From NCBI RefSeq assembly GCF_056746865.1, contig NZ_JBWKMP010000003.1: 64,000 nt of DNA; one strand, 5' to 3'. How positions within the stretch are numbered: the first letter of the stretch is position 1; each line of letters starts with the position of its first letter. Of this stretch, positions 5,453-35,956 are shown piece after piece. Both the position numbers and the translations under genes were made by a program. A model generated the notes under the pieces. That model did no database searches. It was not told the origin of the DNA and saw only the letters and a list, made by a program, of their open reading frames with translations. The DNA comes from a plasmid.

Positions 5453-5498
5453 ATTAATTTTCTAACAACCTTTTTAGACAGTGCATTTTAATGTAAAG

Positions 5499-6354: not shown

Positions 6355-6845
6355 TTAACGTGAAAGTGAAACGCCTTCATCCGGCGGCAAAACTCCCCGT
6401 TTACGCCACCGCCGGATCGGCGGCGATGGATTTTGTTGCTGTTGAAATAACGCCGGGTATCGATAGCAACGGCGCTATTTCCTCAAGCTGGTGGGTGCAT
6501 ACCGGCCTCGCTATGGCGATCCCTCCTGGCTGGTGTCTGAAACTTTATCCTCGTTCCGGATTGGGCTGCAAAAAGCATACGCGCCTGGCTAACTGCGTAG
6601 GAATTATCGACTCCGATTATCGCGGTGAAATCAAAGCAAAACTGATTACAGATCCCGGTGGTGAAGGCGTTTGCCTCAAGCCAGGAATGGCGGTCATGCA
6701 AGGCATTTTTGAGCGTGTTGAACCGGTATCGCTGGTAGAAGTTGATGAACTCGATGAAACAGAGCGAGGTGCTGGTGGCTTTGGTAGCACATCGGAAGAC
6801 CGCATTGAAATCAAGCGTACACCGCTTCAGTACGCAAAGTTTTAA
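6351..6845 (+). CDS. dut: dUTP diphosphatase
   Basis: Trimeric dUTPase motifs: AGSAAMDF, YPRSGLG, GIIDSDYRGE, RGAGGFGSTS. Confidence 0.85.
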   Translation: MINVKVKRLHPAAKLPVYATAGSAAMDFVAVEITPGIDSNGAISSSWWVHTGLAMAIPPGWCLKLYPRSGLGCKKHTRLANCVGIIDSDYRGEIKAKLITDPGGEGVCLKPGMAVMQGIFERVEPVSLVEVDELDETERGAGGFGSTSEDRIEIKRTPLQYAKF

Positions 6846-6859
6846 GTAGAGGAAAGGCT

Positions 6860-7510
6860 ATGAATAACATGCCAACGAAAGAGCTTTTTAAGTTCCTTCC
6901 CAAATACAAAGCTCACAAAAACGTTAGTGCATCGAAAATTAAAAATGTTGTTATTTTCGGAGTAACTGATGCCCCACTTTGGGGCTGCATCGAACTCGTT
7001 GAACCAAAAGGGGCAACAGTTTGTGTTGACGCAATGTTTTTACAAAAACACCGACCAAAAACTGGCGGGTATCTGATCGTTTATGAAAACGGTTATCTGT
7101 TCTATGCCCCGGAGAAACCATTTGAGGAATGCTATGGCCTGGTTAACGACGCCTCCAAAAATGGAACCACGGTCATCATTACGGATGACAACGGCGTGAT
7201 GATTAATCTTACTGGGAGCGTAACTATTTCTGCTGGTGGCATCACCACCCAGCAAGAAGAAATCGACCTTGAAGCAGCCGACTTCTCTGATGCGCTAATG
7301 TGGTTGAAGGAAGGCAAGAAAGTTGCCCGACGCGAGTGGAAAGGCGAAAAGCAATTCTGCTGGTTAGTTCTCGCTGGAAGCGTCAATTTACACGGCATTC
7401 ACGTTCCTTATGGTGACCATTTTGTATTGAAAGATGCACAAAATATGGACAGCGTTTGGTTGCCGTCTGTGGATGATTTACTGGCCTGTGACTGGTTTGT
7501 TGTGGAGTGA
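6860..7510 (+). CDS. fusion protein: unknown N-terminal domain plus C-terminal DUF2829 (Tad2-like) domain
   Basis: C-terminal ~75 aa (FSDALMWLKEGKKVARREWKG...WLPSVDDLLACDWFVVE) matches the DUF2829 pattern as recalled; GAGGAAAGG Shine-Dalgarno. Confidence 0.55.
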   Translation: MNNMPTKELFKFLPKYKAHKNVSASKIKNVVIFGVTDAPLWGCIELVEPKGATVCVDAMFLQKHRPKTGGYLIVYENGYLFYAPEKPFEECYGLVNDASKNGTTVIITDDNGVMINLTGSVTISAGGITTQQEEIDLEAADFSDALMWLKEGKKVARREWKGEKQFCWLVLAGSVNLHGIHVPYGDHFVLKDAQNMDSVWLPSVDDLLACDWFVVE

Positions 7511-14625: not shown

Positions 14626-14814
14626 TCACTCTCCTTTAGTGCGCAAGTGGTTTTTCCAGCGGTTTTGCGCCGCGCTGGGCTTTTTGCAAAAACCACAATC
14701 CATCATCCCGTAATATTTCATCAACCCCATCCGTCGGTTGCTGAGTCTCACCCACTGCCAGACGCCAGGAGCGTTTCTACGAACTAACAGAATCTTTGCT
14801 TTACGGTTTTTCAT
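14626..14814 (-). CDS. small basic protein (MKNRKAK family, copy 1)
   Basis: 62 aa, Lys/Arg-rich, with CGFC; start overlaps the stop of copy 2 (ATGA). Confidence 0.4.
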   Translation of the reverse strand: MKNRKAKILLVRRNAPGVWQWVRLSNRRMGLMKYYGMMDCGFCKKPSAAQNRWKNHLRTKGE

Positions 14815-14987
14815 CTTACAGCGTACCCTTTCTTCCGCCTGTTCTGTGACGCAGTAGGCTTACGCTTTGCGGCAAAAGCCACCTGACCAAATGGATGGAG
14901 TACCGCTATCTTATGGTTGCTAATAACCAGCTCCACCACACGCACAGGTCGCTGTAAAAAAAGTCGTTTTGCCTTACGGTTTTTCAT
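14811..14987 (-). CDS. small basic protein (MKNRKAK family, copy 2)
   Basis: 58 aa (MKNRKAKRLFLQRPVRV..); AGGAGAG Shine-Dalgarno; found by eye, below the track cutoff. Confidence 0.35.
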   Translation of the reverse strand: MKNRKAKRLFLQRPVRVVELVISNHKIAVLHPFGQVAFAAKRKPTASQNRRKKGYAVR

Positions 14988-15079
14988 CGCTTTGCTCTCC
15001 TGCGTCTCTTTGCTGCTCGTCGTGCCGCTGCAATACCGGTATGGCGGCGCTTTGGTGCCGGGATGATGTTGTCAGCCAT
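14984..15079 (-). CDS. tiny Arg-rich ORF (31 aa)
   Basis: MADNIIPAPKRRHTGIAAARRAAKRRRRAKR; stop overlaps the next ATG; no clear Shine-Dalgarno. Confidence 0.2.
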   Translation of the reverse strand: MADNIIPAPKRRHTGIAAARRAAKRRRRAKR

Positions 15080-15159
15080 CAGGACATACGGCTTTGCAAT
15101 TAGCGCAGAAGCCCAAAAACGAGTCGGGTACGGTAACAAGCCGATACATGCCACACGCA

Positions 15160-15912
15160 TTACTCACCTCCTTTGATGCGAATGCCTGCGGCGCGGATTG
15201 CAGCGATGACTTCAGAAACTTTGTATGCCATTACCGTTTGGTAATCATCGTGAAAATCTGTTCGATGAAGCATGCTGCTACGTTCCGGGAGCGATATTTC
15301 CCGAGCATCCAGTTCCTTAACGCGTTCCTCCAGTTCGTAGACCCTGCATTGTTCTCTATCATCAATCAGATATACCCCAAGACATTCGCTTTCTACCCAA
15401 CCGCCAAAATCATGATCGTAACGCTCACATGAAAACTCACCGTCACCGTCCTTTGTTGGAATGGTGTAACTATCTAATGGGCCACCATATGTCGGCACAT
15501 TTCCCAATGTTGGATGCTCAATCCACATGAAAAATGCACGTCCGGTTATTGGGCAAATATCTGGCCGCCATTGGTTACGAACAGCCTTGGTTTCGGATAA
15601 TTCTTCAGCGTGTTGTTTTACTTCCTCAAGCTCAACTCTCAGCTTCCCTACCGTTAGCGCAATATCCTCGTTCTCCTGATCGCGGCGTTTTATGTATTGC
15701 TGGTTTCTTTCCCGTTCATCCAGCAGCGCCAGCACGGTTTCTGGTCCGGTCAGAAATTTGAAGGCGTTGAGCGCATCAATATCCACACCGTAATCTTTAA
15801 GTTCCTGTTCACTTAACAAATCATCATCAGCTGGCAACATTAACAGGCGTTCCATTGCTGGAATTGCACGTTCCGCCGCCTCACGCAGTGCCTGGTAATT
15901 AATTTCGCTCAC
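15160..15912 (-). CDS. Ea22-like family protein
   Basis: Contains [35 protein letters not shown] and the C-terminal [10 protein letters not shown] typical of Ea22-like prophage proteins; GTG start overlaps the upstream stop. Confidence 0.6.
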   Translation of the reverse strand: MSEINYQALREAAERAIPAMERLLMLPADDDLLSEQELKDYGVDIDALNAFKFLTGPETVLALLDERERNQQYIKRRDQENEDIALTVGKLRVELEEVKQHAEELSETKAVRNQWRPDICPITGRAFFMWIEHPTLGNVPTYGGPLDSYTIPTKDGDGEFSCERYDHDFGGWVESECLGVYLIDDREQCRVYELEERVKELDAREISLPERSSMLHRTDFHDDYQTVMAYKVSEVIAAIRAAGIRIKGGE

Positions 15913-16571
15913 TGGTTGCCTCCTTTGCGAAGCTGGGCAGCAAAGTCAACTAACCACTCAGTCATTTCAACCTTCCCTACCAGGTCGGAACCAGGGTGCA
16001 TACAGCAATCACTCTGCGCCGCTTTGAAATCCTTACACTCATATTCTTTGGCCACCAGATTTTTTGCAGCTTCTATAGCAGCATCCACCCCCTGCGCCCG
16101 CACTTCAGCCAGAAAAGCATCGGTAGCTGGAGTTTCGCTGTGGTGTAGGGCATCGTTGATAATCATTGCAGCAACACCAGCCTGCCCTGCATCCGTGACC
16201 GACACATGCTCAAGAGTTACGGCCATTGCGTGTTTCAGCCCAGCGTTCTCTGCCACCAGCGCAGCGATATTAGTCTCAAGCTCTGAAATTCGGCACGTGG
16301 CATCAATATTTGTGTCCTCCAAGCACTTAATTTCACCAAGCAGCTCCAGTGCAACCTTTGGGTTGAACGCGGCAACATGACGAGCGTTGTTCTCTGCATT
16401 TTTCTGTCCATCAAAGCCGGTCCATTTGATAACGTCTTCACATCGTTCATCACCGGGCGTGTGCACCGCATAAGTACCAGTATCCGTCGAAATAAATGCG
16501 ACCCATTCGTCTGGTGTTGCCTTTTCTGCCGCCTCACGCAGTACCTGATAGTCAATTGTCATTCTCGCCAT
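15909..16571 (-). CDS. accessory protein, [13 protein letters not shown] / QLRKGGNQ paralog family
   Basis: Shares the TDAFLAE(V/I)RA motif and C-terminal QLRKGGNQ with 21036-21803, 22951-23454 and 17200-17439. Confidence 0.5.
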   Translation of the reverse strand: MARMTIDYQVLREAAEKATPDEWVAFISTDTGTYAVHTPGDERCEDVIKWTGFDGQKNAENNARHVAAFNPKVALELLGEIKCLEDTNIDATCRISELETNIAALVAENAGLKHAMAVTLEHVSVTDAGQAGVAAMIINDALHHSETPATDAFLAEVRAQGVDAAIEAAKNLVAKEYECKDFKAAQSDCCMHPGSDLVGKVEMTEWLVDFAAQLRKGGNQ

Positions 16572-17203
16572 CCTTCACAGTTGTAATCACTACAGCCTTC
16601 AAAATCATATGGGCTGTACTGCCAGGTTATTTTTCCGCAATGCGGACAATTCCAACGCACCTTCCCGCTTCGCGACTTCTTTCTTCTGTTCTGCTCTTTC
16701 AACCAGTCAGGCATGATCAAACCTGCGCCCTGAACCATTGTTCTGCGGTTAAAGTTATTGATATTGAACGTCCGGCGCTTTGCTGCATCAGCAATGGAAA
16801 ATGGCAACCAAACTATTCCTGGTTCGTTTTTGTTGGCGACGCTAAAGATGGTCGCTTTACTGAAGTCATCTGTTGGCAATCCACCGTGTTGAAGCCAGTA
16901 AACATCGTTGCCGTTCCAGCTACCTTTTTTGTAGGCCACATACGCAGTGCAATCTGACTCAATCAGGCTTTCTGTAGGGATGTACTGGCAATCAACGTGC
17001 CACACAGCCATTGCATCCACGCTATCAGCGCAAACAGGCTGATCGATATCTCGCCCACAATTCCAGGCTTTTTGGGCTTCTTCCAGCGTGTAAACATGAG
17101 CGCGATCGATATCAGAGCTATAACCATTGCCGTTATGGCAATGGAATGAGGCGTTATTACCCACAGTTTCACGCAAGCACATCATGTAAAAACGGTTACT
17201 CAC
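16559..17203 (-). CDS. zinc-ribbon protein
   Basis: GTG start overlapping the upstream stop after AAGGAGG; C-terminal CPHCG...CEGW zinc ribbon. Confidence 0.45.
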   Translation of the reverse strand: MSNRFYMMCLRETVGNNASFHCHNGNGYSSDIDRAHVYTLEEAQKAWNCGRDIDQPVCADSVDAMAVWHVDCQYIPTESLIESDCTAYVAYKKGSWNGNDVYWLQHGGLPTDDFSKATIFSVANKNEPGIVWLPFSIADAAKRRTFNINNFNRRTMVQGAGLIMPDWLKEQNRRKKSRSGKVRWNCPHCGKITWQYSPYDFEGCSDYNCEGWRE

Positions 17204-17439
17204 TGGTTGCCTCCTTGGCGGAGTTGCGCTGCGATGCATGAAAAAAAAGACTCCCGAGTGTGACAGTTAAGAGCTGGTGCGAACGCCGCGTTAAGAACGG
17301 CGGCATCACAGCCGTCATCAATATAGAGCGCAATTTTTTTCTCCAGGCGCGCTTTGGCTTCCTGCAACTGCATACCCCGGCACGCACGCGGGATATAATC
17401 AGCAATTTGAGCGATAGCTTTTTCGTTCTGTTTAAACAT
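17200..17439 (-). CDS. small protein with C-terminal AAQLRQGGNQ
   Basis: 79 aa; its conserved C-terminal codons double as the Shine-Dalgarno for the next gene. Confidence 0.45.
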   Translation of the reverse strand: MFKQNEKAIAQIADYIPRACRGMQLQEAKARLEKKIALYIDDGCDAAVLNAAFAPALNCHTRESFFSCIAAQLRQGGNQ

Positions 17440-17635
17440 GCTTCACCTCGATAGGCTTGATGGTGTCTAACAGCAGTCGGCGGCGCGTATTTTCTGCAAA
17501 ATGGCGGCGTCCAGTTTCTTTGTGGTAAAACTCGTTTTTGCCGACGACCCACATCCGCTCTGTTTGGTGCAGTTTTTTTACCTTCGGGCCATCTTTGGTG
17601 ATCACGGTACCGGTATGGGTTTTTACGATTGTCAT
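17432..17635 (-). CDS. hypothetical protein
   Basis: 67-aa basic ORF within the operon chain. Confidence 0.35.
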   Translation of the reverse strand: MTIVKTHTGTVITKDGPKVKKLHQTERMWVVGKNEFYHKETGRRHFAENTRRRLLLDTIKPIEVKHV

Positions 17636-17718
17636 GCCACTACCTATTCGAACAGATGAACGAGACAGGCCGATGCTCGTCCACCTGAAAAACTGACGAT
17701 TTGATGCATACTCACGGT

Positions 17719-18447
17719 TTATTCCTGAATGCGCTTAAACTCGATTACCCACACCCAGGGATTAGCGTTCCAGCTTTCTTCACCATAGATGGATTCCCAC
17801 AGGCGCTGGAACGCAACCTTGGCCATTGCGAAATCCCCCTTGGGAGTAAGGAATGTTCCCGGGTGATCAGGAAGCAAACTTCCAGCAGGCGGAACGCCCT
17901 CAGCCCTTGCATCGCATTCGCTGATATCGTTCAACCGTTCAACGCGCACGTTGGTAATTTCCAACAGAATGCGTGATGCCCATCGCGGCATGTGAATTGA
18001 TGGACGCCACCCACCATCAAACTTTTCATTCACAGTGTGAGGTTTCCAGTCGGCATCATCGGGTATCGACCATAAGCCGTAATCACCAGGTTTTTGCTCG
18101 CAACTGGCCCGATAAATCCTTGCTGCGTTCTTCTCATCGCCACGACAAAGGTTGTCGTTCCAGTCCACACTGCAACCATCCTCATTGCCTAATATCGCCC
18201 ATGTTTCACGAACCCAAATTCGATCGCCGACGATACCAAATGGGCAATTGAAAACACTGCTTACACCATCAGCCCCGTACCACTGAAAACCTGCACCAAT
18301 TTTTCTAACCATCACTGGTGCTTCTGGACCAACTTCCGCAGGCTGATTTTTCATTATCCGCCGCGTCTGCGTTTTCCTTCCTTCGAGGATGGCCCGGACC
18401 ATCTCATCGTTAAAAATCATCCCGCGTTCTTTCATTTTTTGATCCAC
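17719..18447 (-). CDS. ASCH-domain-like protein
   Basis: N-terminal FNDEMVRAILEGRKTQTRR and C-terminal WVWVIEFKRI resemble YqfB-type ASCH proteins. Confidence 0.45.
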   Translation of the reverse strand: MDQKMKERGMIFNDEMVRAILEGRKTQTRRIMKNQPAEVGPEAPVMVRKIGAGFQWYGADGVSSVFNCPFGIVGDRIWVRETWAILGNEDGCSVDWNDNLCRGDEKNAARIYRASCEQKPGDYGLWSIPDDADWKPHTVNEKFDGGWRPSIHMPRWASRILLEITNVRVERLNDISECDARAEGVPPAGSLLPDHPGTFLTPKGDFAMAKVAFQRLWESIYGEESWNANPWVWVIEFKRIQE

Positions 18448-18451
18448 TCCA

Positions 18452-19447
18452 TCAGTTATTGAACGTGATCACTCCGCGCTCGATGGCGAAGTCGAAAAGC
18501 TGGTTGGCGGCTACGTAAAGGCGTATGCCATGTGCTTTTTCCCATGCCCGGACATCGTTTTCTGCGCTTCTGGCGCATTCATCGCAAAGAGGAACGGCCC
18601 AGCGATCGTGTTCGTTTAACGAGCGGGCGCGGTACATGAACGGGTGATTAACTTTGCCTCCGCATCCGATGCACGGACGAGAAATCACAAACCGGAGATA
18701 AGCCGGGCTTTTACCGAGAACCGCTTTTGGTCGGCGCATATACAGCAGGCCGGAATCCTCATCTACAGACAGGTTGACGATCTGCTCTGCGGTTATGTCC
18801 ACCAGCTCACGGGTGCTGTGCTCCCAGGTGATATCCGATTCTTTCAGTGTGCCGGTAGGGATTTCCTGTTTTGGCTGACAAAATGCAATGCGACCGGCTT
18901 CATCTGGCAGCTCGTCTTTCAGATTCCGGCGAATGGCCCAAAAAGTGAGTTCAACCATGCTCAGATCGCGTTCTGGCGGTAGTTTTAACTCGCTCGCAGC
19001 CCAGTTCATAACCCAGTTGGCACGATTCAGGGATAACTGGTCATCCAGCTTGCCGTACCCCTTCATCATGTATTCCGCATCATGCTTCCAGCACAGGCGA
19101 ACGGCAGAGCCGTTATAGAAATGAGTGGTTAGCTGGTGGCTGCAATCGCGCTTATCGTGCGCCTGGCAATCGTGGATATTGGAACTTACCCAATGAACAA
19201 GCGAATCTTCACCGCCTAATGCGTTAAATACGCGCTCGCTTTGAAAAAATGCTTTCAGAGACTGGTTGGCAACCAGCGAATAGTTCAGATCCACTACGCC
19301 ATCTGGCGTGTTTTCAGCCTGTTCGCGCGGAAGTGGAGAGATAATGAAACGGCGACCTGCGCCAATGTAGTTGCTGGTGGGCTTGTCTACCGGAAAGACA
19401 GCCACACCAGCTCCGTTTACGAAATGAGGTGTGATTATTGCACTCAT
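18452..19447 (-). CDS. DUF968-like protein with a C-terminal Ref/HNH-like Cys-His cluster
   Basis: RPCIGCGG..H....VPLCDEC at the C-terminus, similar in pattern to the ref-like gene at 24641. Confidence 0.45.
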   Translation of the reverse strand: MSAIITPHFVNGAGVAVFPVDKPTSNYIGAGRRFIISPLPREQAENTPDGVVDLNYSLVANQSLKAFFQSERVFNALGGEDSLVHWVSSNIHDCQAHDKRDCSHQLTTHFYNGSAVRLCWKHDAEYMMKGYGKLDDQLSLNRANWVMNWAASELKLPPERDLSMVELTFWAIRRNLKDELPDEAGRIAFCQPKQEIPTGTLKESDITWEHSTRELVDITAEQIVNLSVDEDSGLLYMRRPKAVLGKSPAYLRFVISRPCIGCGGKVNHPFMYRARSLNEHDRWAVPLCDECARSAENDVRAWEKAHGIRLYVAANQLFDFAIERGVITFNN

Positions 19448-19490
19448 AATGTATACCGACTCTGTTTTGTTCCGAGCGGTAAAATAATAT

Positions 19491-19520
19491 GTTAGAAAAT
19501 TAAAATCAATATTCTAACAC
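19491..19520. promoter_or_regulatory. operator-like imperfect palindrome (internal promoter region)
   Basis: GTTAGAAAAT..ATTCTAACAC between the phosphatase gene and the DUF968-like gene. Confidence 0.4.
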
Positions 19521-19551
19521 GGTTTTGAGTGCATAAACGATGTGTTCAGGA

Positions 19552-20238
19552 TTACGGCTGGCCTCCCTTCACCTGCTTTAGCGTCAGATTTCCGCAAAAA
19601 ACCGCGCCAGTGTCTATGTAGTGCTGGTTCCAGAAAGATTTCGGGCTGTTTACTGGCGTATGCCCGAAAATAAAGCTATCTGCACCAGTGATCATTCCAC
19701 CAACACCATCAACCGCGTCATAAAATCGCTCACGCCGCCAGGTAACATTGAGATCGCTAACAGGTTTACCAAACTGGTATTCGTTATCAGGATAGTCGGC
19801 ATGGGCTATAACGATAGTTTCATGCCCGGTGTTCAACTCAATGATATAGGGTAAACGTCTTACCAGCTCCACCAGCGCCCTGGCTAATATTTCCCGATCA
19901 GCGTCCAGCATGAAGAACCATTGGCCGCCATTCATTAGCCAGTTATTCACGTTGCCTGCGGGGCTTAACGCATCGATCATTAATCGCTCGTGGTTTCCCA
20001 TAACCGACCGAAACCAGGGCATCTGCAATAGCTCCAAGCATTCAACATTTTCGGTGCCGCGATCGATAAGGTCGCCAACCGATATCAGTAAATCCTGTGT
20101 CGGGTCAAAGTCCACACGATGAAGTTCAGACATCAATCTGGTGTAGCAACCATGCAGATCACCAACAACCCATATGTTTCTGTAGCCTGAACCATCAATA
20201 CGGCCATATAAATTCACTTCATGCAGCGCCTGGGTCAT
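19552..20238 (-). CDS. Ser/Thr protein phosphatase (lambda PP / NinI-like)
   Basis: Metallophosphoesterase motifs GDLHG, GDLIDRG, GNHE; start at the internal ATG. Confidence 0.75.
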
Positions 20239-20546
20239 GCGGCAACCTTCTCCCGCAGCCAGATACAAACCGGGCCATCTTCAGTGTCATGAATAGAGCC
20301 AACAAACCATCCTTCGCCCTCTGGTCGCTCTGGTTCCCAGGCGGCAATATCGGGACCATCTGCGTCCAGATTAAAATGATCTTCATCCATACTGCGAATA
20401 GTCCACTGAAGATTATTATCCTTCATCCAGGCGTCAAATTCCTCAGTGGATATATATTCACGACCTGCGCAAAACTTTTCATATTCCGGATGTGTCCAGC
20501 AGCCATATTCATCACGTTCTACCGGCATTTCTTTAATGATGCTCAC
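20235..20546 (-). CDS. hypothetical protein
   Basis: 103 aa; start and stop overlap the neighbouring genes. Confidence 0.4.
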
Positions 20547-20767
20547 TCTTCATCCTCCAAGTCGGCAACGGCCTCCATCACATCAGAACCGCGAATAACC
20601 TCAAAAGCACGGCAGGCCATTTCAAACACCTGTTGTTCTTGCGGATGCGGTGACTCCCAATACTTAAAACCAGGTCGATGCTCGTAACCCAACATGGAAT
20701 AAAAATCGCCAGCAAGTTCAATCGCTGCATCAACAAGTTCGCGATTTGTCATCGTCTGTTCTGTCAT
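20543..20767 (-). CDS. hypothetical protein
   Basis: 74-aa acidic ORF in the operon chain. Confidence 0.4.
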   Translation of the reverse strand: MTEQTMTNRELVDAAIELAGDFYSMLGYEHRPGFKYWESPHPQEQQVFEMACRAFEVIRGSDVMEAVADLEDEE

Positions 20768-21039
20768 TTTGTTTTCTCCTGTCTGAACATCACTATCATC
20801 AGGTCGCCTTTTGTCGCTATCCTGGCTGTTGTACCTGGTTCAATGCGGCTAAGCTCAAATGCGTCATAGAACGCTTCTAATGCCTTCTGGCGTAGTTCCT
20901 GTTTGCGCCGTTTTTTCCACTGTTTTAGGAAAATGGAACCCAGCCATCGCCATGTACGGGACATGATGTAAAGCCAACCGAGAAGTGCCAGACCGGTATT
21001 TAGGAGCGTATCGATCGTTATTGTCGTGTCGATATTCAC
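20764..21039 (-). CDS. small membrane protein
   Basis: GTG start overlapping the upstream stop after the conserved AAGGAGG; one hydrophobic helix. Confidence 0.4.
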   Translation of the reverse strand: MNIDTTITIDTLLNTGLALLGWLYIMSRTWRWLGSIFLKQWKKRRKQELRQKALEAFYDAFELSRIEPGTTARIATKGDLMIVMFRQEKTK

Positions 21040-21803
21040 TGGCTGCCTCCTTTGCGAAGCTGGTCGGCGAACAAACGTACACTAGACGCTTCACTGCGTA
21101 GAAACTTAACGGCATAATCAAAACCACCTCGTTCTGCGTCGTCTGCTCCGTTGTCGAGGTTATCTGCGTACATCTCTACCCCCTGCGCACGTACTTCAGC
21201 CAGGAAAGCATCGGTGGCTGGGGTATCAACACGGATACTGTCGCGCAAGATGAAAAATGCATTGAGCATTCCAGTCTCTGGCACTTCATCCTGATGCTTC
21301 TCATACGCATCAAGAGCCTTCATCATCTCAGCTCCGAATGGTTGAGGGTGCACAGACTTCAGCTCCGCATTCTCCGCCGCCAGCACCGCGCGTTCGCTCT
21401 CCAGTTCTGTAATGCGCCGTCTTGCAGCATCCAGTTCAATCGACAATTTTCCCAACTGCTCTTTATGCTTCTTGTATTCCTGATATGCGTGCCAAGACTG
21501 ACCTTTGCGCACACTATCCGTGATATCAGTAATCTGTTCTGGTGTTAGCGTGGTCAGTGGCTGTGCTGGGAAAATCAGCACTTTCCCAGCATCCCAATCA
21601 AAACCCACCTGAATTGACTGAACCTCAACTGATGGTGTTGAACCGATGCGACCAGGCGAATGAACAACGATCGTTACATCCATATCGCGACGATGGCTGT
21701 GGTTGTTGGACAAAATACGATTCACCAACTCCGAGAATTTGGAAAATTTCATGCTGATTCCCTTTGCTCTTCCTGGATAATGTTGTTGCAATCTTTCACG
21801 CAC
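21036..21803 (-). CDS. accessory protein, [13 protein letters not shown] / QLRKGGSQ paralog family
   Basis: 255 aa; motif shared with 15909-16571. Confidence 0.5.
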
Positions 21804-22072
21804 TCGTTGCAGATGAAAACGTTGTCCCCGGCAATTAACTTTTTAACGGTGTGCTGGGATTTGTTGCAGAAGCTGCAATAAAGCGTTGGACTGGCTGATA
21901 TGGATGGTGCGCCAGATGTCAGCCGCGCGATGTCGTTCTTGCGACGCAATATCACACGGCTGCACTCGACCAGCATCTCCGGGGATATATCCTCCTCCGT
22001 GGCGAGCGCCTCCAGACGTTCGAGCAAGCGAAATACTTTTTCCTGGGTGATTGCAGAATGCGATGTGGTCAT
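21749..22072 (-). CDS. ClpX N-terminal zinc-binding-domain-like protein
   Basis: [36 protein letters not shown] closely mirrors the ClpX C4 zinc-binding domain; AAGGAGAG Shine-Dalgarno; no AAA+ module. Confidence 0.5.
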
Positions 22073-22073
22073 C

Positions 22074-22724
22074 TCACTCTCCTTTGATGCGAATGCCAGC
22101 GGCACGGGAGTCATTCCATCGCTTTACTTCTTCACGAATTACGTCAATGCATTCTTTCGAATCCATTAGGTAATCTTCATCAAAAAGCCTTTCCTGTTCG
22201 TTTTCTATCGCAACAATGATTGCTTCAACTAACTTTTGTGCCTGAGAACCACTTTCTAACTCTGCAATGCGCTTCTCTGCGGCTTCCAGCTTCTCGCGCA
22301 TATCGTCAACGTACTCGACCAGAGATCCGCCAGCAGGAATTTCGCACTCCTCGACCAGTTGGAAGTAGATATCAGCTGCGGCCCGTGTGTTGCTATGCCT
22401 AGCGTCGCCCATCTCACCTTCACGAAGAGCATCGCGTTCGGCGGTAAGATTGGCTATTTTGCTGTCTTTGCCTTCAAGCTCAACGCGCAGCTTCCCTACC
22501 GTTAGCGCAATATCCTCGTTCTCCTGGTCGCGGCGTTTTATGTATTGCTGGTTTCTTTCCCGTTCATCCAGCAGCGCCAGCACAATGTGTGGCGTTATCA
22601 AGGACTCAAATTCGGCAACAGCTTGCTCACCTCGCTTGTAATTCTTAATCCCACCTAAATCTTTCGCGTTCTGTGCCGCCTCACGCAGCGCCAGTGTGTC
22701 GATGTCGATGTCGATGTTGCTCAT
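22074..22724 (-). CDS. Ea22-like family protein
   Basis: Shares the [35 protein letters not shown] block and C-terminal AAGIRIKGE with 15160-15912. Confidence 0.55.
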
Positions 22725-22954
22725 TGTGCCTCCTCGATTTCGTCCCATTCCACCCAGGCATTCTCTCCATCAGCATCGATTTCACCTTTGTGACCGCATT
22801 TGGAACAAACGGCCTCATCACCCGCCCACAAAGAATCTTTGGTTACCGACCATCCTGTTACCCTGGCTTTGCCGTGCTGGCACCTAGGGCAATCATCAAG
22901 CCATTCGACTTCGACCGTTGAAGGACCAAATCCATGTTCAGTTCGGATGCTCAT
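22721..22954 (-). CDS. zinc-ribbon protein
   Basis: CPRCQHG...CSKCGH; AAGGAG Shine-Dalgarno; overlaps the upstream stop. Confidence 0.45.
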   Translation of the reverse strand: MSIRTEHGFGPSTVEVEWLDDCPRCQHGKARVTGWSVTKDSLWAGDEAVCSKCGHKGEIDADGENAWVEWDEIEEAQ

Positions 22955-23454
22955 GACTGAACTCCTTTGCGAATCTGTTCCGCCCATTCTTCAAGGGATT
23001 TCTCCGCATATTCACCGGACAGGCCATCAATCGGATGCGGTTCATTAGCCAACTCTTCTTTCGCTGACAAAATCATGCGTGTAACGTCGAAAACTTCACG
23101 CAAAGACTTATTGATAAATCCGTGATTGAACGCAGCAGCAAGACGGCTTGCGGTGTAGTTAATCCCCTCGTTGCGTGCCTCCGCACGTATTTCAGCCAGG
23201 AAAGCGTCGGTGGCTGACATATTTCCTGTTGCCTTCATGGCCTTCAAAATAACCAGAACGCCATCTTGCCCAACCAACTCGGAGATAATCTCAGTGTTGT
23301 CGCCAACAACCTCACAGAATGCCTGAACAGCTTTACGAGCAAGTGCATTCTCCGCCGCCAGCGCCGCGCGCTCTTTCTCAAGTCGGGAAATTTCCGTTAC
23401 ATACTCAGCGTTACGCTCTGCCAGTTGTGCGGGCGTTAAACCTTCAGACTTCAT
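22951..23454 (-). CDS. accessory protein, TDAFLAEIRA paralog family
   Basis: 167 aa; motif family as 15909-16571. Confidence 0.45.
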   Translation of the reverse strand: MKSEGLTPAQLAERNAEYVTEISRLEKERAALAAENALARKAVQAFCEVVGDNTEIISELVGQDGVLVILKAMKATGNMSATDAFLAEIRAEARNEGINYTASRLAAAFNHGFINKSLREVFDVTRMILSAKEELANEPHPIDGLSGEYAEKSLEEWAEQIRKGVQS

Positions 23455-23728
23455 GCACTCTCCTTTCGAAATAAACGTACTGATTAATCATGCCCAGGGG
23501 CATTTCGAACTTTTCTGCGATCTCACGGCGGGGAACGCCACACTGATGAAGCTGCCGCGCCAGCTCTATATCGCTCTGCCGGTATTTGGCTGACTGGTGA
23601 AAGTCACCTTTCAGAATCATGCTGATCCGCAATTGCCGCGCTTTAGTCCTGACAGCACCACCGGTACGCCCGATCAGTCTCCCAATACCCTCGACTGTCA
23701 TAGTCCCGGCGCACTGGCGGAGTATCAT
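23444..23728 (-). CDS. putative DNA-binding protein
   Basis: Two helix-turn-helix-like repeats (GRLIGRTGGAVRTKARQL and GVPRREIAEKFEMP). Confidence 0.35.
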   Translation of the reverse strand: MILRQCAGTMTVEGIGRLIGRTGGAVRTKARQLRISMILKGDFHQSAKYRQSDIELARQLHQCGVPRREIAEKFEMPLGMINQYVYFERRVHEV

Positions 23729-23757
23729 GATTTCTGCCCTTCCCCATCCCCGCCAGC

Positions 23758-24369
23758 TCACGCAGAACTCCTTCTAACCAAAAGAACGCCATCTTCAGAA
23801 ACAACGTTGCAGGACTTCAGGTAATTCATTGCCTCTTTCGGTAATGGATTCTTTGGATCGGCGCTTGCCAGGGATTTCGATAACCTCATGATAAATTTGA
23901 TCATTACCTTCTGACGGAGCTTGTGCTCATGGGATGCAGACAGGTAATAGGAAATGGTATGGGCTAAACGCTCACGAAGCTGTTCTGTGCCGTGATATAC
24001 AGCAGCGATATCACGCAGTGCATTGACCAGTTCCCGGTAAATATGCGGAGCAACCTGGCATTCAATGTTGGTTGGTGACTCATAAATTACATTCAGCCCC
24101 AGCTTTTGAGCCAGCTCGTGCTCTGCACGAGCGCCAACTGATTCCTCCCACCCCTTGAGCAAATAGACCGCATTAGCCGAACGCACCATTGCAAGGCAAA
24201 TATCCATGTATTCGCTCTGGCAGAGGCCAGCAGGTAACAGCGCCGGATTCAGAACAATATGCCCTACCTCCATCAGCTCTTTTGCTTTCGAAAAAAACGC
24301 TGTGCGGTTGTAGTCGGGATAACCAGTCATCGGACCCGCGATGTAAATTTTCATAATGCGTTTTGACAT
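23758..24369 (-). CDS. DUF4406 (nucleoside 2-deoxyribosyltransferase-like) protein
   Basis: MKIYIAGPMTGYPDYN N-terminal signature; start at the internal ATG. Confidence 0.55.
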   Translation of the reverse strand: MSKRIMKIYIAGPMTGYPDYNRTAFFSKAKELMEVGHIVLNPALLPAGLCQSEYMDICLAMVRSANAVYLLKGWEESVGARAEHELAQKLGLNVIYESPTNIECQVAPHIYRELVNALRDIAAVYHGTEQLRERLAHTISYYLSASHEHKLRQKVMIKFIMRLSKSLASADPKNPLPKEAMNYLKSCNVVSEDGVLLVRRSSA

Positions 24370-24564: not shown

Positions 24565-24596
24565 GTGTTAGAAAATCAATTTTGATTTTCTAACAC
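24565..24596. promoter_or_regulatory. palindromic operator in the divergent promoter region
   Basis: GTGTTAGAAAATCAA-tt-TTGATTTTCTAACAC; 15-bp arms, perfect apart from the centre. Confidence 0.55.
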
Positions 24597-24640
24597 TTTT
24601 GATCAACCATAGCGGCGATGTAGACAAACCGGGTATTTCT

Positions 24641-25216
24641 ATGAAGCAAAGCTATTGGGAGAAACAGACACAAAAAGCCCTGCAAAAACTGGCTGATCCG
24701 AAATGGCGGGAGGAACAAAGGGCAAAGCGTCTTCAGCAAGCTCAACGCCAGCAGCAGCGTGCGCGAGAAAAAGCCGCATCGCCTGAATATCGGCAAAAGA
24801 AAATTGAAAAAGCGAAGCAATATGAACAGCGAAGAAAAGAGAAGGCCGCTTCTGCTCCTGTCAAAAAAACTCGCGCGTCACGCGGCCTGAAAGGCAGAAC
24901 ACTCACAGCAGATGAGCGCCGGATACAAACTGCCATCGGTGCTCTCCCCTGCATTGCCTGCCATATGCACGGACAGCATAGCCCTGTGGTATCCCTGCAC
25001 CACATCTTCGGGAGAACAGCAGAAAACGCGCATAAATACGTCCTCCCTTTGTGTAAATGGCACCATCAACACGCAGCGCCAGCAGAGATCCGCGAGCAAT
25101 ACCCCTGGTTGGTTCCTGTTCATGCTGATGGAAAAATAGGCGGCAAAGCAGATTTCAGGCGGCACAATGCTGATGAAATGACGTTGTATCAGATGGTGAC
25201 TGAATTAATAAATTAA
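24641..25216 (+). CDS. ref: Ref-like HNH endonuclease (recombination enhancement function)
   Basis: Highly charged, basic N-terminal region followed by a Cys/His HNH-like core (CIACHMHG...LPLCKWHH); start at ATG 24641, not the track's TTG. Confidence 0.5.
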   Translation: MKQSYWEKQTQKALQKLADPKWREEQRAKRLQQAQRQQQRAREKAASPEYRQKKIEKAKQYEQRRKEKAASAPVKKTRASRGLKGRTLTADERRIQTAIGALPCIACHMHGQHSPVVSLHHIFGRTAENAHKYVLPLCKWHHQHAAPAEIREQYPWLVPVHADGKIGGKADFRRHNADEMTLYQMVTELIN

Positions 25217-25715: not shown

Positions 25716-25818
25716 GAAAACACACAGTTGCGCCCTGGCATTATCGTGGGGTATATTTCTACGGCACCTTAGAAAAACGGGTGCCGGGATTGGAACCCCG
25801 GATAATGTCAAAGGCGAC

Positions 25819-25846
25819 ACAGACGCCGAACGCGTCTTTTTTTGTG
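25819..25846 (+). terminator. hairpin with T-run between target site 1 and the c4-like RNA
   Basis: AGACGC-cgaac-GCGTCT followed by TTTTTTGTG; short stem. Confidence 0.35.
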
Positions 25847-25892
25847 TCATGCCATCGCACAGCCATACTTAGCGTTTAGCTCAGAGATCAAT

Positions 25893-25972
25893 GGTAGTGC
25901 TGGCTGGGCTGCCGAAAGGCAGGCCGGTTCCCTTTGACGCCGGTAGTTCCAACCCAGTCAGTGCTACCGCCA
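25893..25972 (+). ncRNA. c4-like antisense regulatory RNA (immI-type)
   Basis: About 80 nt; acceptor-like stem GGTAGTGC / GTGCTACC followed by G-CCA; internal GNRA hairpin CTGCC-gaaa-GGCAG; single-stranded CCCTTTGAC and GTTCCAACC complementary to sites at 25787-25814 and 25975-26020. Confidence 0.4.
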
Positions 25973-26028
25973 TTGAGATTGGAACCTCACGCGGTAGCTC
26001 CTTAACTTAGTCAAAGGAGGCTGCCAAT

Positions 26029-35912: not shown

Positions 35913-35956
35913 AAAACTGTGTTAGATAATTGAGTTTTATTTTCTAACACAGTTTT
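35913..35956. promoter_or_regulatory. palindromic operator upstream of rdgC
   Basis: AAAACTGTGTTAGA ... TCTAACACAGTTTT: perfect 14-bp arms with GTTAGA / TCTAAC cores. Confidence 0.5.

Follow-up and report, generated by a model that had tools for sequence, protein, structure and literature searches.

A coding gene-boundary sequence as a probable translational-coupling joint and recombination linker in the Ead/Ea22 region of a P1/D6-like phage-plasmid

The gene array and its recurring junction

The analysed window, a plasmid stretch of 64,000 nt, is a P1/D6-like phage-plasmid with a tightly packed minus-strand gene array between 14.6 and 24.4 kb. Between 23761 and 14814, start and stop codons overlap by 4 nt (ATGA/GTGA) at 13 of 20 junctions. 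With such packing, ribosome-binding sites normally lie inside the upstream gene, and most genes of the array are joined by an intragenic Shine-Dalgarno (SD) sequence and a start/stop overlap, which are not special to the junctions considered here. Five Ea22-related paralogs are encoded in the window; an HNH/DUF968 gene and a gene for a stand-alone ClpX-type zinc-finger protein (21749-22072) are found in the same array. The genes and repeats discussed below are:

15160-15912, minus strand: Ead/Ea22 protein (PF13935), 250 aa, GTG start; downstream of joint A
15909-16562, minus strand: Ead/Ea22 protein (PF13935), 217 aa, with the N-terminal IDYQVLREAAEKA motif, a conserved island and a QLRKGGNQ tail
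16559-17203, minus strand: phrog_2457 protein, 214 aa, GTG start at 17203; downstream of joint B
17200-17439, minus strand: phrog_1344 protein, 79 aa, ending AAQLRQGGNQ
20764-21039, minus strand: DUF4752/phrog_667 protein, 91 aa, GTG start; downstream of joint C
21036-21752, minus strand: Ea22-C-type paralog, 238 aa, with the island and a QLRKGGSQ tail
22074-22724, minus strand: Ea22-like paralog, 216 aa, with a 37-aa block, ending AAGIRIKGE
22951-23454, minus strand: Ea22-C-type paralog, 167 aa, with the island and an IRKGVQS tail
15626-15735, minus strand: 110-nt block, copy 1, 97.3% identical to 22474-22583, encoding an identical 37-aa coiled-coil segment
22474-22583, minus strand: 110-nt block, copy 2

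Pfam Ead_Ea22 (PF13935) matches both proteins with the 37-aa block as well as the protein at 15909-16562, with E-values of 2e-24 and 3e-29 among these matches. A preliminary description of this DNA had noted a near-identical 35-aa block in two Ea22-like paralogs; the sharing stands, but the block measures 37 identical residues (110 nt, 97.3%). Its framing of the genes as paralog families is incomplete, fitting the Ea22-type members but not the 79-aa phrog_1344 protein, which matched no Ea22-type phrog family in a PHROGs comparison.

Three minus-strand junctions (15909, 17200, and 21036) contain exact copies of a shared 21-mer, CGCMAAGGAGGCARCCAGTGA, which encodes the peptide R-K/Q-G-G-N/S-Q followed by the stop; its AAGGAGG ends 6 nt 5' of a GTG that overlaps the TGA. 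The 21-mer has three matches in the window but none in 100 dinucleotide-preserving shuffles, in which up to 3 mismatches were allowed, and aligning the junctions bears out the conservation claimed for them, including the SD and the overlapping GTGA. A fourth junction, described earlier as AAGGAG plus an ATG, is indeed an ATGA variant. The joints, together with those of a second type, are:

15909-15929, minus strand: linker copy A, CGCAAAGGAGGCAACCAGTGA, tail RKGGNQ and stop of the Ea22-type protein 15909-16562; AAGGAGG at 15925-15919, GTG of the next gene at 15912-15910, TGA at 15911-15909; junction 15909-15912, protein end FAAQLRKGGNQ, DNA cgcaaaggaggcaaccaGTGA
17200-17220, minus strand: linker copy B, CGCCAAGGAGGCAACCAGTGA, tail RQGGNQ and stop of the 79-aa non-Ea22-type protein; junction 17200-17203, protein end IAAQLRQGGNQ, DNA cgccaaggaggcaaccaGTGA
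21036-21056, minus strand: linker copy C, CGCAAAGGAGGCAGCCAGTGA, tail RKGGSQ and stop of the Ea22-C-type protein with the GTG of the DUF4752 gene; junction 21036-21039, DNA cgcaaaggaggcagccaGTGA
22951-22973, minus strand: variant joint, ATTCGCAAAGGAGTTCAGTCATGA, IRKGVQS and stop, with the same AAAGGAG and spacing and an ATG overlapping the TGA; junction 22951-22954, protein end AEQIRKGVQS, DNA cgcaaaggagttcagtcATGA
15160-15196, minus strand: second linker type, GGCATTCGCATCAAAGGAGGTGAGTAATG, ending GIRIKGGE and stop, SD in the tail, next start at TAATG
22072-22107, minus strand: second linker type, copy 2, ending GIRIKGE and stop, then ATG

Two start codons given earlier need correction. For the gene after 17203, the GTG at 17203 is a more likely start than ATG 17239, and for the one after 22954, the ATG at 22954 is more likely than 22987. 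In the closest plasmids, NCBI annotates the same starts with their 4-nt overlaps (6442-6717 with 6714-7430 in plasmid L201; 1233-1958 with 1955-2194 in L202).

Coding tail and predicted ribosome-binding site

The preliminary description had proposed that the C-terminal codons double as the ribosome-binding site of the next gene, and several features support this predicted dual use. A near-perfect SD lies within the last 5-6 codons, optimally spaced from the stop-overlapping start codon. In a sample gathered by the TDAFLAEV motif rather than by the junction sequence, 66 of 83 ends are (Q/E)LRKGGNQ, and all 50 ends of the R[KQE]G type retain exactly three codons before the stop overlapping A/GTG. 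Third-position entropy in this sample is lowest at Lys (0.14) and the first Gly (0.24), compared to 1.4-1.5 in codons farther upstream; the compared sequences are related and mostly drawn from E. coli and Salmonella prophages, and the low synonymous variation could in part reflect recent spread rather than selection. In variants with an altered peptide (KGVQS, KGAAL, and KGADK), AAAGGAG is retained along with its spacing and the ATGA/GTGA overlap.

A functional peptide, for example a C-terminal protease or adaptor tag that may be bound by the ClpX-type zinc-finger protein (21749-22072), would be another reason for conserving this ending. The gene for this protein is nearby, known ligands of ClpX zinc fingers contain Leu-Arg, and Leu at position -7 (46/50) and Arg at -6 (50/50) are nearly invariant upstream of the SD; two contexts retain K-G-G with a weakened SD (AAAGGCGGT). 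This is nevertheless highly improbable, as residues vary freely past Lys-Gly (GNQ, GSQ, VQS, AAL, ADK, SSQ, and GAA), AAAGGAG with its spacing and the start/stop overlap is retained in more contexts than the reverse, unrelated proteins bear the tail, and the second Ea22 tail, IRIKGGE, carries AAAGGAG within a different peptide.

Since AAGGAGG and the GTG/TGA overlap lie in the last codons, a ribosome ending the upstream protein could start the next one. SD use, GTG initiation, and translational coupling at the linker are predictions from sequence, in line with E. coli, where overlapping gene pairs with an SD inside the upstream gene are usually coupled (PMC6728339). Those ATGA/GTGA pairs share with the joints described here the 4-nt overlap and a strong SD in the upstream 3' end; the mechanism is probably the same, and only the reuse of one joint between unrelated gene pairs is unusual.

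Partner exchange and breakpoints at the linker

Scanning viral contigs with the exact 21-mer, a criterion that itself forces 21-nt identity, yielded at least 120 loci. They include HK97, where gp37 was confirmed directly; we take the 39,732-bp contig to be HK97 and a 38,297-bp contig with the 21-mer to be HK620. Clustering the DNA that flanks the 127 sites gave 32 upstream and 29 downstream clusters, linked many-to-many in 77 distinct combinations. Upstream proteins are mostly of the Ea22-C type, but RKGGNQ also ends unrelated families (..NKYLNAMWRKGGNQ, the 79-aa phrog_1344 protein, and ..SGKIRSAAQLRKGGNQ), and the downstream proteins comprise at least eight families unrelated to Ea22, with a Val-Ser start (GTGAG) in 23 of the 29 clusters. 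When two sites have different flanks on either side, the median length they share is only 29 nt: on the upstream side, identity ends 0-20 nt before the 21-mer, and on the downstream side it ends 0-4 nt past GTGA, or runs 20-50 nt past GTGA when both downstream genes have an Ea22 N-terminus. In the TDAFLAEV sample, an exact run of at least 23 nt through the stop is found in only 29% (308/1055) of the pairs unrelated on both flanks.

The 79-aa protein has no more than about 34 nt of tail in common with Ea22-type proteins, indicating that the tail travels with the junction and not with the protein family; the gene next to it downstream is a different one in each of the window, L201, and L202. Members of the NKYLNAM[WL]R family with the KGG[NS]Q linker tail have 12 downstream clusters in 23 contexts, compared to three in 44 contexts, 42 of them the same, for members with the alternative SGKK tail. 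The SGKK-tailed gene and its neighbour may be functionally locked to each other, in which case this contrast would be confounded.

These observations bear on plain paralogy, by which the copies of a duplicated Ea22-type domain would simply have conserved their C-terminus, with the SD resulting from tight packing and without any role in recombination. Of the four window genes that end this way, three indeed share an ATDAFLAE(V/I)RA island and two match phrog_368 end to end, and an SD lies inside the upstream gene at every junction of the array. However, the same tail occurs on proteins unrelated to Ea22, a single family bears either the linker tail or a different one, and the Ea22 proteins are unalignable and unequal in length between island and tail. 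The two tails of that one family and their contrasting partners suggest that gain or loss of the tail does not depend on the body of the protein. As similarity breakpoints also fall at the linker edges, we consider paralogy improbable.

One of these breakpoints is at linker B, the upstream bound of the following block:

14979-17216, minus strand: 2.2-kb block 98.9% identical to the lambdoid Stx2c-converting phage L207

The first gene of this block is 16559-17203. The D6-like plasmids L201 and L203 match 17198-17652 at 98%, and the phage and plasmid matches overlap only inside linker B, in the 19 nt at 17198-17216, which, judging from these alignments, is the window's recombinant joint between the Stx-phage-like block and the plasmid backbone. 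Near linker C, matches to L202 and L204 stop at 21062 and the match to L206 at 21042. Those to plasmids L203 and L205 stop at 22097, inside copy 2 of the second linker type; at least two linker types other than the 21-mer show similar behaviour.

Exchange does not require the linker, since other breakpoints in the array, at junctions or within genes (e.g. 18356, 22583, 22667, and 23345), fall where it is absent. Such breakpoints are expected under the Hendrix model, in which illegitimate (non-homologous) recombination strikes anywhere and selection then keeps intact genes; the linker would be conserved only as a very good translation-initiation region that is repeatedly fixed or retained. This model also agrees with the absence of boundary sequences at most mosaic joints (PMC3029335) and with the NAMWR family, in which tail and body meet at only about 5 shared nt (TGGCG), resembling microhomology. 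Yet selection on initiation leaves the identity of the spacer and the Asn/Gln codons (GCAACCAG) unexplained, other junctions of the array use quite different SD/spacer/start combinations, and within one family, members with the linker have far more diverse partners than members lacking it. We therefore regard the Hendrix model as possible but unlikely. The modular shuffling of cassettes at the joint suggested in the preliminary description appears well founded, given the 32 and 29 partner clusters, the breakpoints at the linker edges, the unrelated tail carriers, and the contrast in partner diversity.

A probable coupling joint and recombination linker

The repeat is a linker conserved at gene boundaries, about 21-36 nt long, with the core AAAGGAGGCARCCAGTGAG. 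It belongs among the accessory genes of the Ead/Ea22 region in temperate phages of enterobacteria, here in a P1/D6-like phage-plasmid. Probably, it is a translational-coupling joint that doubles as a short recombination linker for the cassettes of this region. In the mRNA, the Arg-Lys-Gly-Gly-Asn-Gln codons would present AAGGAGG six bases before the TGA-overlapping GTG. In the DNA, the linker may serve as a homology patch, as it is identical in many otherwise unrelated contexts and its length is near the minimal pairing length of Red-beta-type recombination (for efficient pairing, Red-beta needs at least 23-27 bp and RecA 31-34 bp; PMC3945230). Exchange at the linker would swap the flanking genes and leave both reading frames and the coupling unbroken, and the (R)KGGNQ tail, usually with the downstream fMet-Ser, would be a passenger of the linker and not part of the protein bodies. 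The many-to-many linkage and the breakpoints are directly visible in the compared sequences; the recombination pathway is inferred.

The setting agrees with the published mosaicism of ea22 in the lambda exo-xis region (PMC10834534). In the comparison with lambdoid Ea22 regions proposed earlier, shared features besides the PF13935 matches are a (I/N)(D/N)YQALREAAE motif at the N-terminus, a coiled-coil block and swappable C-terminal domains, as in the mosaic Ead/Ea22 proteins. Lambda has one ea22 between exo and xis, whereas this plasmid prophage has five paralogs, and the C-terminal module from the island to QLRKGGNQ is not the lambda Ea22 C-terminal domain.

Short conserved boundary sequences at lambdoid module junctions have been described by Susskind & Botstein (1978) and, for HK620, by Clark et al. 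(2001) (PMC3029335). They resemble the linker in being short, lying at a gene boundary, being shared by genomes with unrelated flanking genes and coinciding with mosaic breakpoints; the linker differs in lying wholly inside coding sequence, adding residues to both proteins, and in joining lambdoid, P22-like, and P1/D6-like phages. In mycobacteriophage Island3 (gp67/gp68), the C-terminal 18 residues of an inserted gene copy those of the upstream gene, which the authors attributed to recombination between short repeated gene ends (PMC3029335). There too, what a gene has in common with a non-homologous neighbour is confined to the 3' end (about 50 bp), but Island3 is a single case from another phage group with a longer repeat, and no dual role in ribosome binding or initiation was noted (PMC3029335).

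Integron cassettes (attC x attI) are likewise promoterless, combinatorial, and joined by a recurring short sequence, although this is an analogy only, as the joint here lies inside coding sequence and lacks an attC-like imperfect palindrome. A dedicated site-specific system acting on the linker, such as an integron-like attC or a homing-endonuclease site in place of general or phage homologous recombination, would fit the many-to-many cassettes and the HNH/DUF968 gene. We consider it the least probable alternative and barely plausible: folding of the 81-nt stretches around the joints A to C is no better than that of shuffled sequences (z of -0.6 to -1.0), their sole recurrent structure is a marginal 5-bp hairpin unlike attC, and scanning the array's 20 products against PHROGs revealed no integrase-like gene. 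The phages that carry the linker also differ in their recombination genes (HK97 erf, a P22-like phage 'recombinase'), and at least two other linker types act alike.

As a concept, the linker exemplifies phage mosaicism of the known "conserved boundary sequence" type, combined with ordinary intragenic SD coupling. In the Ead/Ea22 region, it marks sites of gene-cassette swapping between phages.

Gene junctions in the minus-strand array

The genes between about 14.6 and 24.4 kb all lie on the minus strand with little space between them. When each start is picked for its ribosome-binding site and overlap, 4-nt ATGA or GTGA start/stop overlaps make up 13 of the 20 junctions between 23761 and 14814. 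Nearly every start in this array is preceded by a GGAG-type motif within the final three to six codons of the upstream gene. At four junctions, the preliminary description had noted last codons that double as the ribosome-binding site of the next gene, and on direct inspection all four sequences are as described:

Junctions carrying the linker or its variant (position, strand, feature)
15909, minus strand: junction A, upstream tail ..QLRKGGNQ-stop, cgcaaaggaggcaaccaGTGA
17200, minus strand: junction B, upstream tail ..QLRQGGNQ-stop, cgccaaggaggcaaccaGTGA
21036, minus strand: junction C, upstream tail ..QLRKGGSQ-stop, cgcaaaggaggcagccaGTGA
22951, minus strand: variant junction, upstream tail ..QIRKGVQS-stop, cgcaaaggagttcagtcATGA

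A 21-mer, CGCMAAGGAGGCARCCAGTGA, runs from the final six codons through the stop and its overlapping start at junctions A, B and C; the window holds these 3 copies, and none was found in 100 shuffles with up to 3 mismatches. At the linker junctions, stop and start overlap on the same strand (ATGA/GTGA), and AAGGAGG sits 6 nt ahead of the GTG, in the 3' end of the upstream gene. The NCBI annotation of the closest plasmids contains identical 4-nt overlaps with GTG starts.

The longest open reading frames start at ATG 17239 (gene 16559-17239) and ATG 22987 (gene 22721-22987), both on the minus strand, and these starts are probably wrong. GTG 17203 and ATG 22954 are favoured because they overlap the upstream stops, have a proper Shine-Dalgarno and agree with the annotation of the relatives. 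For annotation, an in-frame ATG further upstream should give way to a start that overlaps the preceding stop, GTG included (17203 and 22954 are examples), and a C-terminal tail like RKGGNQ should not count as a protein motif.

A second junction type, GGCATTCGCATCAAAGGAG(G/A)GTGA..ATG, encodes ..AAGIRIKG(G)E-stop and is present at 15160-15196 and 22072-22107 (minus strand). It occurs at 104 sites in the compared loci, ahead of more than 10 different downstream gene starts, and this sister linker behaves like the main one.

Partners of the linker across phage genomes

About 330 of 50,697 phage records contain the 21-mer, as do at least 120 viral-contig loci, among which we take HK620 and HK97 to be; at HK97 gp37, the presence of the linker was confirmed directly. 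The linker is common to lambdoid, P22-like and P1/D6-like phages. The 127 sites among the matches listed can be grouped by their DNA into 32 upstream and 29 downstream clusters, which are combined in 77 distinct pairings. The upstream proteins of these listed matches are mostly of an Ea22-C type, in which a conserved island (17 protein letters) is followed by about 20-60 unalignable residues and then by FA(A/D)(Q/E)LRKGGNQ, and the RKGGNQ ending is also found on three unrelated protein families. Many of the downstream genes in the same listed matches have Ea22-type N-termini (VSKIDYQALREAAE..), and at least eight further families are unrelated to Ea22. Since 23 of the 29 downstream clusters start with GTG-AGY, the linker provides the tail of the upstream protein and usually also the first two codons of the next one. 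Listed sites that differ on both sides have a median of 29 nt in common, with identity stopping 0-20 nt upstream of the 21-mer and 0-4 nt past the GTGA, except that it runs longer on the GTGA side if both downstream genes are Ea22-like. Across genomes, the flanks of the linker are unrelated and their association is many-to-many.

Behind the linker at the end of gp37, HK97 has, at 1525-1629 of the compared locus, 34 unannotated codons left over from an Ea22 N-terminus (VSKIDYQALREIAKH...stop) and then a terminator ahead of xis. This remnant looks like the relic of a deleted cassette.

Because the first sample had been selected by the 21-mer itself, a second one of 80 further loci was drawn using the peptide TDAFLAEV, located 40-90 residues upstream of the gene end. 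In this sample, 66 of the 83 gene ends read (Q/E)LRKGGNQ, and the others include KGVQS, KGGAA, KGAAL, KGADK, and KGSSQ. Each of the 50 ends that fit R[KQE]G carries exactly three further codons, after which comes a stop overlapping an ATG or GTG, and AAAGGAG is retained in 48 of them. At the third codon position, entropy is down to 0.14 for Lys and 0.24 for the first Gly, compared to 1.4-1.5 for the Ala and Phe codons that lie another five to six codons upstream, and ends that change the peptide but keep the Shine-Dalgarno outnumber those that do the opposite. As the Shine-Dalgarno is kept more often than the peptide, these patterns point to a constraint at the nucleotide level (Shine-Dalgarno, spacing, and overlap) rather than to a peptide motif, supportively and not decisively, since the sampled sequences are related to each other. 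Of the pairs that are unrelated on both flanks, 29% are identical over a run of at least 23 nt that extends through the stop codon.

A built-in control is offered by the ..NKYLNAM[WL]R family, which occurs with and without the linker tail. Its members end either in SGKK-stop, with its own Shine-Dalgarno and an ATGA overlap, or in KGG[NS]Q-stop, the tail of the linker. The linker-tailed form is followed by 12 downstream clusters in 23 distinct contexts, compared to only three clusters in 44 contexts for the SGKK-tailed form, 42 of which have the same neighbour. The tail is thus not tied to the protein body, and partners vary far more at linker junctions.

Breakpoints and mosaicism in the phage-plasmid region

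Local BLAST of the window against seven relatives placed several breakpoints at the linker. A lambdoid Stx2c-converting phage matches 14979-17216 at 98.9% and D6-like plasmids match 17198-17652 at about 98%; the two matches overlap over no more than 19 nt, all in linker B, which makes the window a recombinant joined within this linker. The 79-aa gene ahead of linker B (17200-17439) has three different next genes in the window and in L201 and L202, two of the closest plasmids. At linker C, the matches of relatives stop at 21042 or 21062, and others stop at 22097, inside the second linker type (..GIRIKGE-stop). Further breakpoints lie inside genes or at other junctions (e.g. 18356, 22583, 22667, and 23345), and the linker is therefore one route of exchange among others.

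Pfam PF13935 (Ead/Ea22) matches the genes 15909-16562 (E 2.3e-24) and 15160-15912 (E 2.7e-29), the remaining Ea22 paralogs are recognized by PHROG matches only (phrog_250, phrog_368, phrog_614, and phrog_492), which they have in common with this pair, and the closest plasmids carry genes annotated as "ead/Ea22-like family protein" in the same region. The 79-aa protein matches only phrog_1344 and no Ea22-type phrog, which by PHROGs places it outside the Ea22 family, and its gene has only the 34-nt tail in common with the Ea22 genes. A near-identical 35-aa block had been reported for two of the paralogs; the block is confirmed, with the length corrected to 37 identical residues (110 nt, 97.3% identity, 15626-15735 vs. 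22474-22583). The paralogs in the window have only such short islands in common, namely an N-terminal IDYQALREAAE motif (47 nt), the coiled-coil block (110 nt), an island of 16 protein letters (39-53 nt), and two kinds of 3' end (34-36 nt each). In the genes 15909-16562, 21036-21752, and 22951-23454 and in the upstream clusters of the viral-contig loci (L001-L120), a near-invariant island (17 protein letters) and the invariant tail flank a segment of about 20-60 residues that cannot be aligned between members, so that variable cassettes lie within genes as well as between them.

The window belongs to a P1/D6-like phage-plasmid, because the top E. coli matches of the region are 90-95-kb plasmids, phage D6 has the same layout between its ref and pmg genes, and a Ref-family nuclease gene and a C4 RNA are encoded next to the array:

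Features beside the array (coordinates, strand, feature)
24599-25216, plus strand: Ref-family nuclease gene (gene call and annotation of relatives)
25764-25842, plus strand: isrK (Rfam, above the gathering score)
25887-25974, plus strand: C4 antisense RNA, P1-type (Rfam, above the gathering score)

Together, isrK and C4 constitute the immI immunity region of the P1/P7 type and mark the window as a P1-like phage-plasmid. The array genes are of the accessory type known from the lambda exo-xis/ea region and comprise five Ea22-related paralogs, a stand-alone ClpX-type zinc-finger protein, a NinI-like phosphatase, a DUF968/HNH protein, DUF4752, and several small proteins of unknown function. The region 14900-23800 is extremely mosaic: among 50,697 phage records and 5,426 complete E. 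coli genomes, not one reaches 80% coverage of it, and the best phage record covers 42%.

The stand-alone zinc-finger protein (107 aa; 21749-22072, minus strand) matches the N-terminal C4 zinc finger of ClpX with its final 45 residues (E 1e-12); it lacks an ATPase domain and could mimic ClpX or compete with it. Immediately downstream, the Ea22 array is followed by two small paralogous genes in tandem (14626-14814 and 14811-14987, minus strand; 62 and 58 aa), both beginning with MKNRKAK and connected through ATGA overlaps. A palindrome, GTTAGAAAAT-N8-ATTTTCTAAC, occurs in three copies whose half-sites are identically spaced (24567-24594, 19491-19518, and 35921-35948), with half-sites also at 5457, 25216, and 45347, and 17 half-site matches with at most 1 mismatch compared to 4.8 expected. 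One copy sits between the minus-strand array start and ref, another in a 104-nt gap that interrupts the array ahead of the DUF968/HNH gene, and the repeat is probably an operator or promoter element of the P1/D6-like phage. Except for the ClpX zinc-finger domain, an NCBIfam scan named none of 10 junction proteins, and PADLOC matched none of 10 array proteins to a defence system. At gathering thresholds, Rfam found nothing within 14.6-24.4 kb and only C4 and isrK at 25.7-26.0 kb; a tRNA scan found none, and a promoter/terminator scan did not exceed shuffles in its number of sites and gave no minus-strand terminator within the array that was convincing.

Proposed coupling and exchange at the linker, and known boundary sequences

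The preliminary interpretation of the linker as a coupling joint that permits modular shuffling of cassettes is supported, with corrections, by the junction anatomy, the many-to-many linkage, the breakpoint positions, and the separable tail. AAGGAGG would act as the Shine-Dalgarno and GTG as the start of the downstream gene, in a manner coupled to upstream termination; coupling is proposed because overlapping E. coli gene pairs with an intragenic Shine-Dalgarno were coupled in four of five cases (PMC6728339). Exchange may proceed by homologous recombination within the linker, as suggested by the contrast in partner diversity and by a linker length near the published minimal pairing length. At about 21-36 nt, it is near the minimum for Red-beta (23-27 bp) and just below that for RecA (31-34 bp; PMC3945230).

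The conserved Leu-Arg codons (CUUCG/CUCCG) directly 5' of the Shine-Dalgarno are complementary to its core, and a 5-bp hairpin pairing CUUC with GAGG is predicted at all three joints in the window:

Predicted hairpins (coordinates, strand, feature)
15914-15929, minus strand: hairpin at junction A, RNA folding
17205-17219, minus strand: hairpin at junction B, RNA folding
21041-21056, minus strand: hairpin at junction C, RNA folding

Over 81 nt around each joint, folding is not better than that of shuffles (z -0.6 to -1.0), and hairpin covariation in 29 distinct family ends is marginal (9 of 500 and 23 of 500 shuffles), within the range for related sequences under no structural constraint. The modelled hairpin could sequester the Shine-Dalgarno or could arise by chance. 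Integron-type attC sites were also considered and rejected, as the joints have no notable fold and no integrase is present among 20 scanned array products; a homing-type reading was rejected along with it.

A more far-reaching view, which we regard as improbable, is that the linker and at least two sisters (..RKGVQS/ATGA and ..GIRIKG(G)E) were selected for evolvability as an integrase-free cassette-exchange system. Single-strand-annealing recombinases of phages would then insert accessory genes into a translationally coupled array by way of in-frame joints of 20-35 nt, the joints would serve as a currency between lambdoid, P22-like, and P1/D6-like phages, and the Leu-Arg (CUUCG) hairpin might hide the Shine-Dalgarno and so tie expression of a new cassette strictly to upstream translation.

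PMC3029335 credits Susskind & Botstein (1978) and, for HK620, Clark et al. (2001) with the idea of short conserved boundary sequences that serve the exchange of lambdoid modules. Like the boundary sequences of temperate-phage mosaics, the linker lies at module boundaries between unrelated flanks, and breakpoints coincide with it. It is thus a well-supported member of this known class and not a new kind of element. A mycobacteriophage gene with only its C-terminal 18 codons in common with its neighbour (PMC3029335) and the mosaicism of ea22 (PMC10834534) have been published; no published description of the linker AAAGGAGGCAACCAGTGAG was found in a search that did not extend to Clark et al. 2001 or Brussow et al. 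2004. What may be less appreciated is that the joint is wholly coding, gives residues to both proteins, is used in three phage groups, and has sister linkers. Whether phage mosaicism results from recombination at short conserved linkers or from random joining followed by selection is an old debate, for which this locus provides a clean and quantifiable case: one joint of 21-30 nt, dozens of unrelated genes, and three groups of temperate phages.
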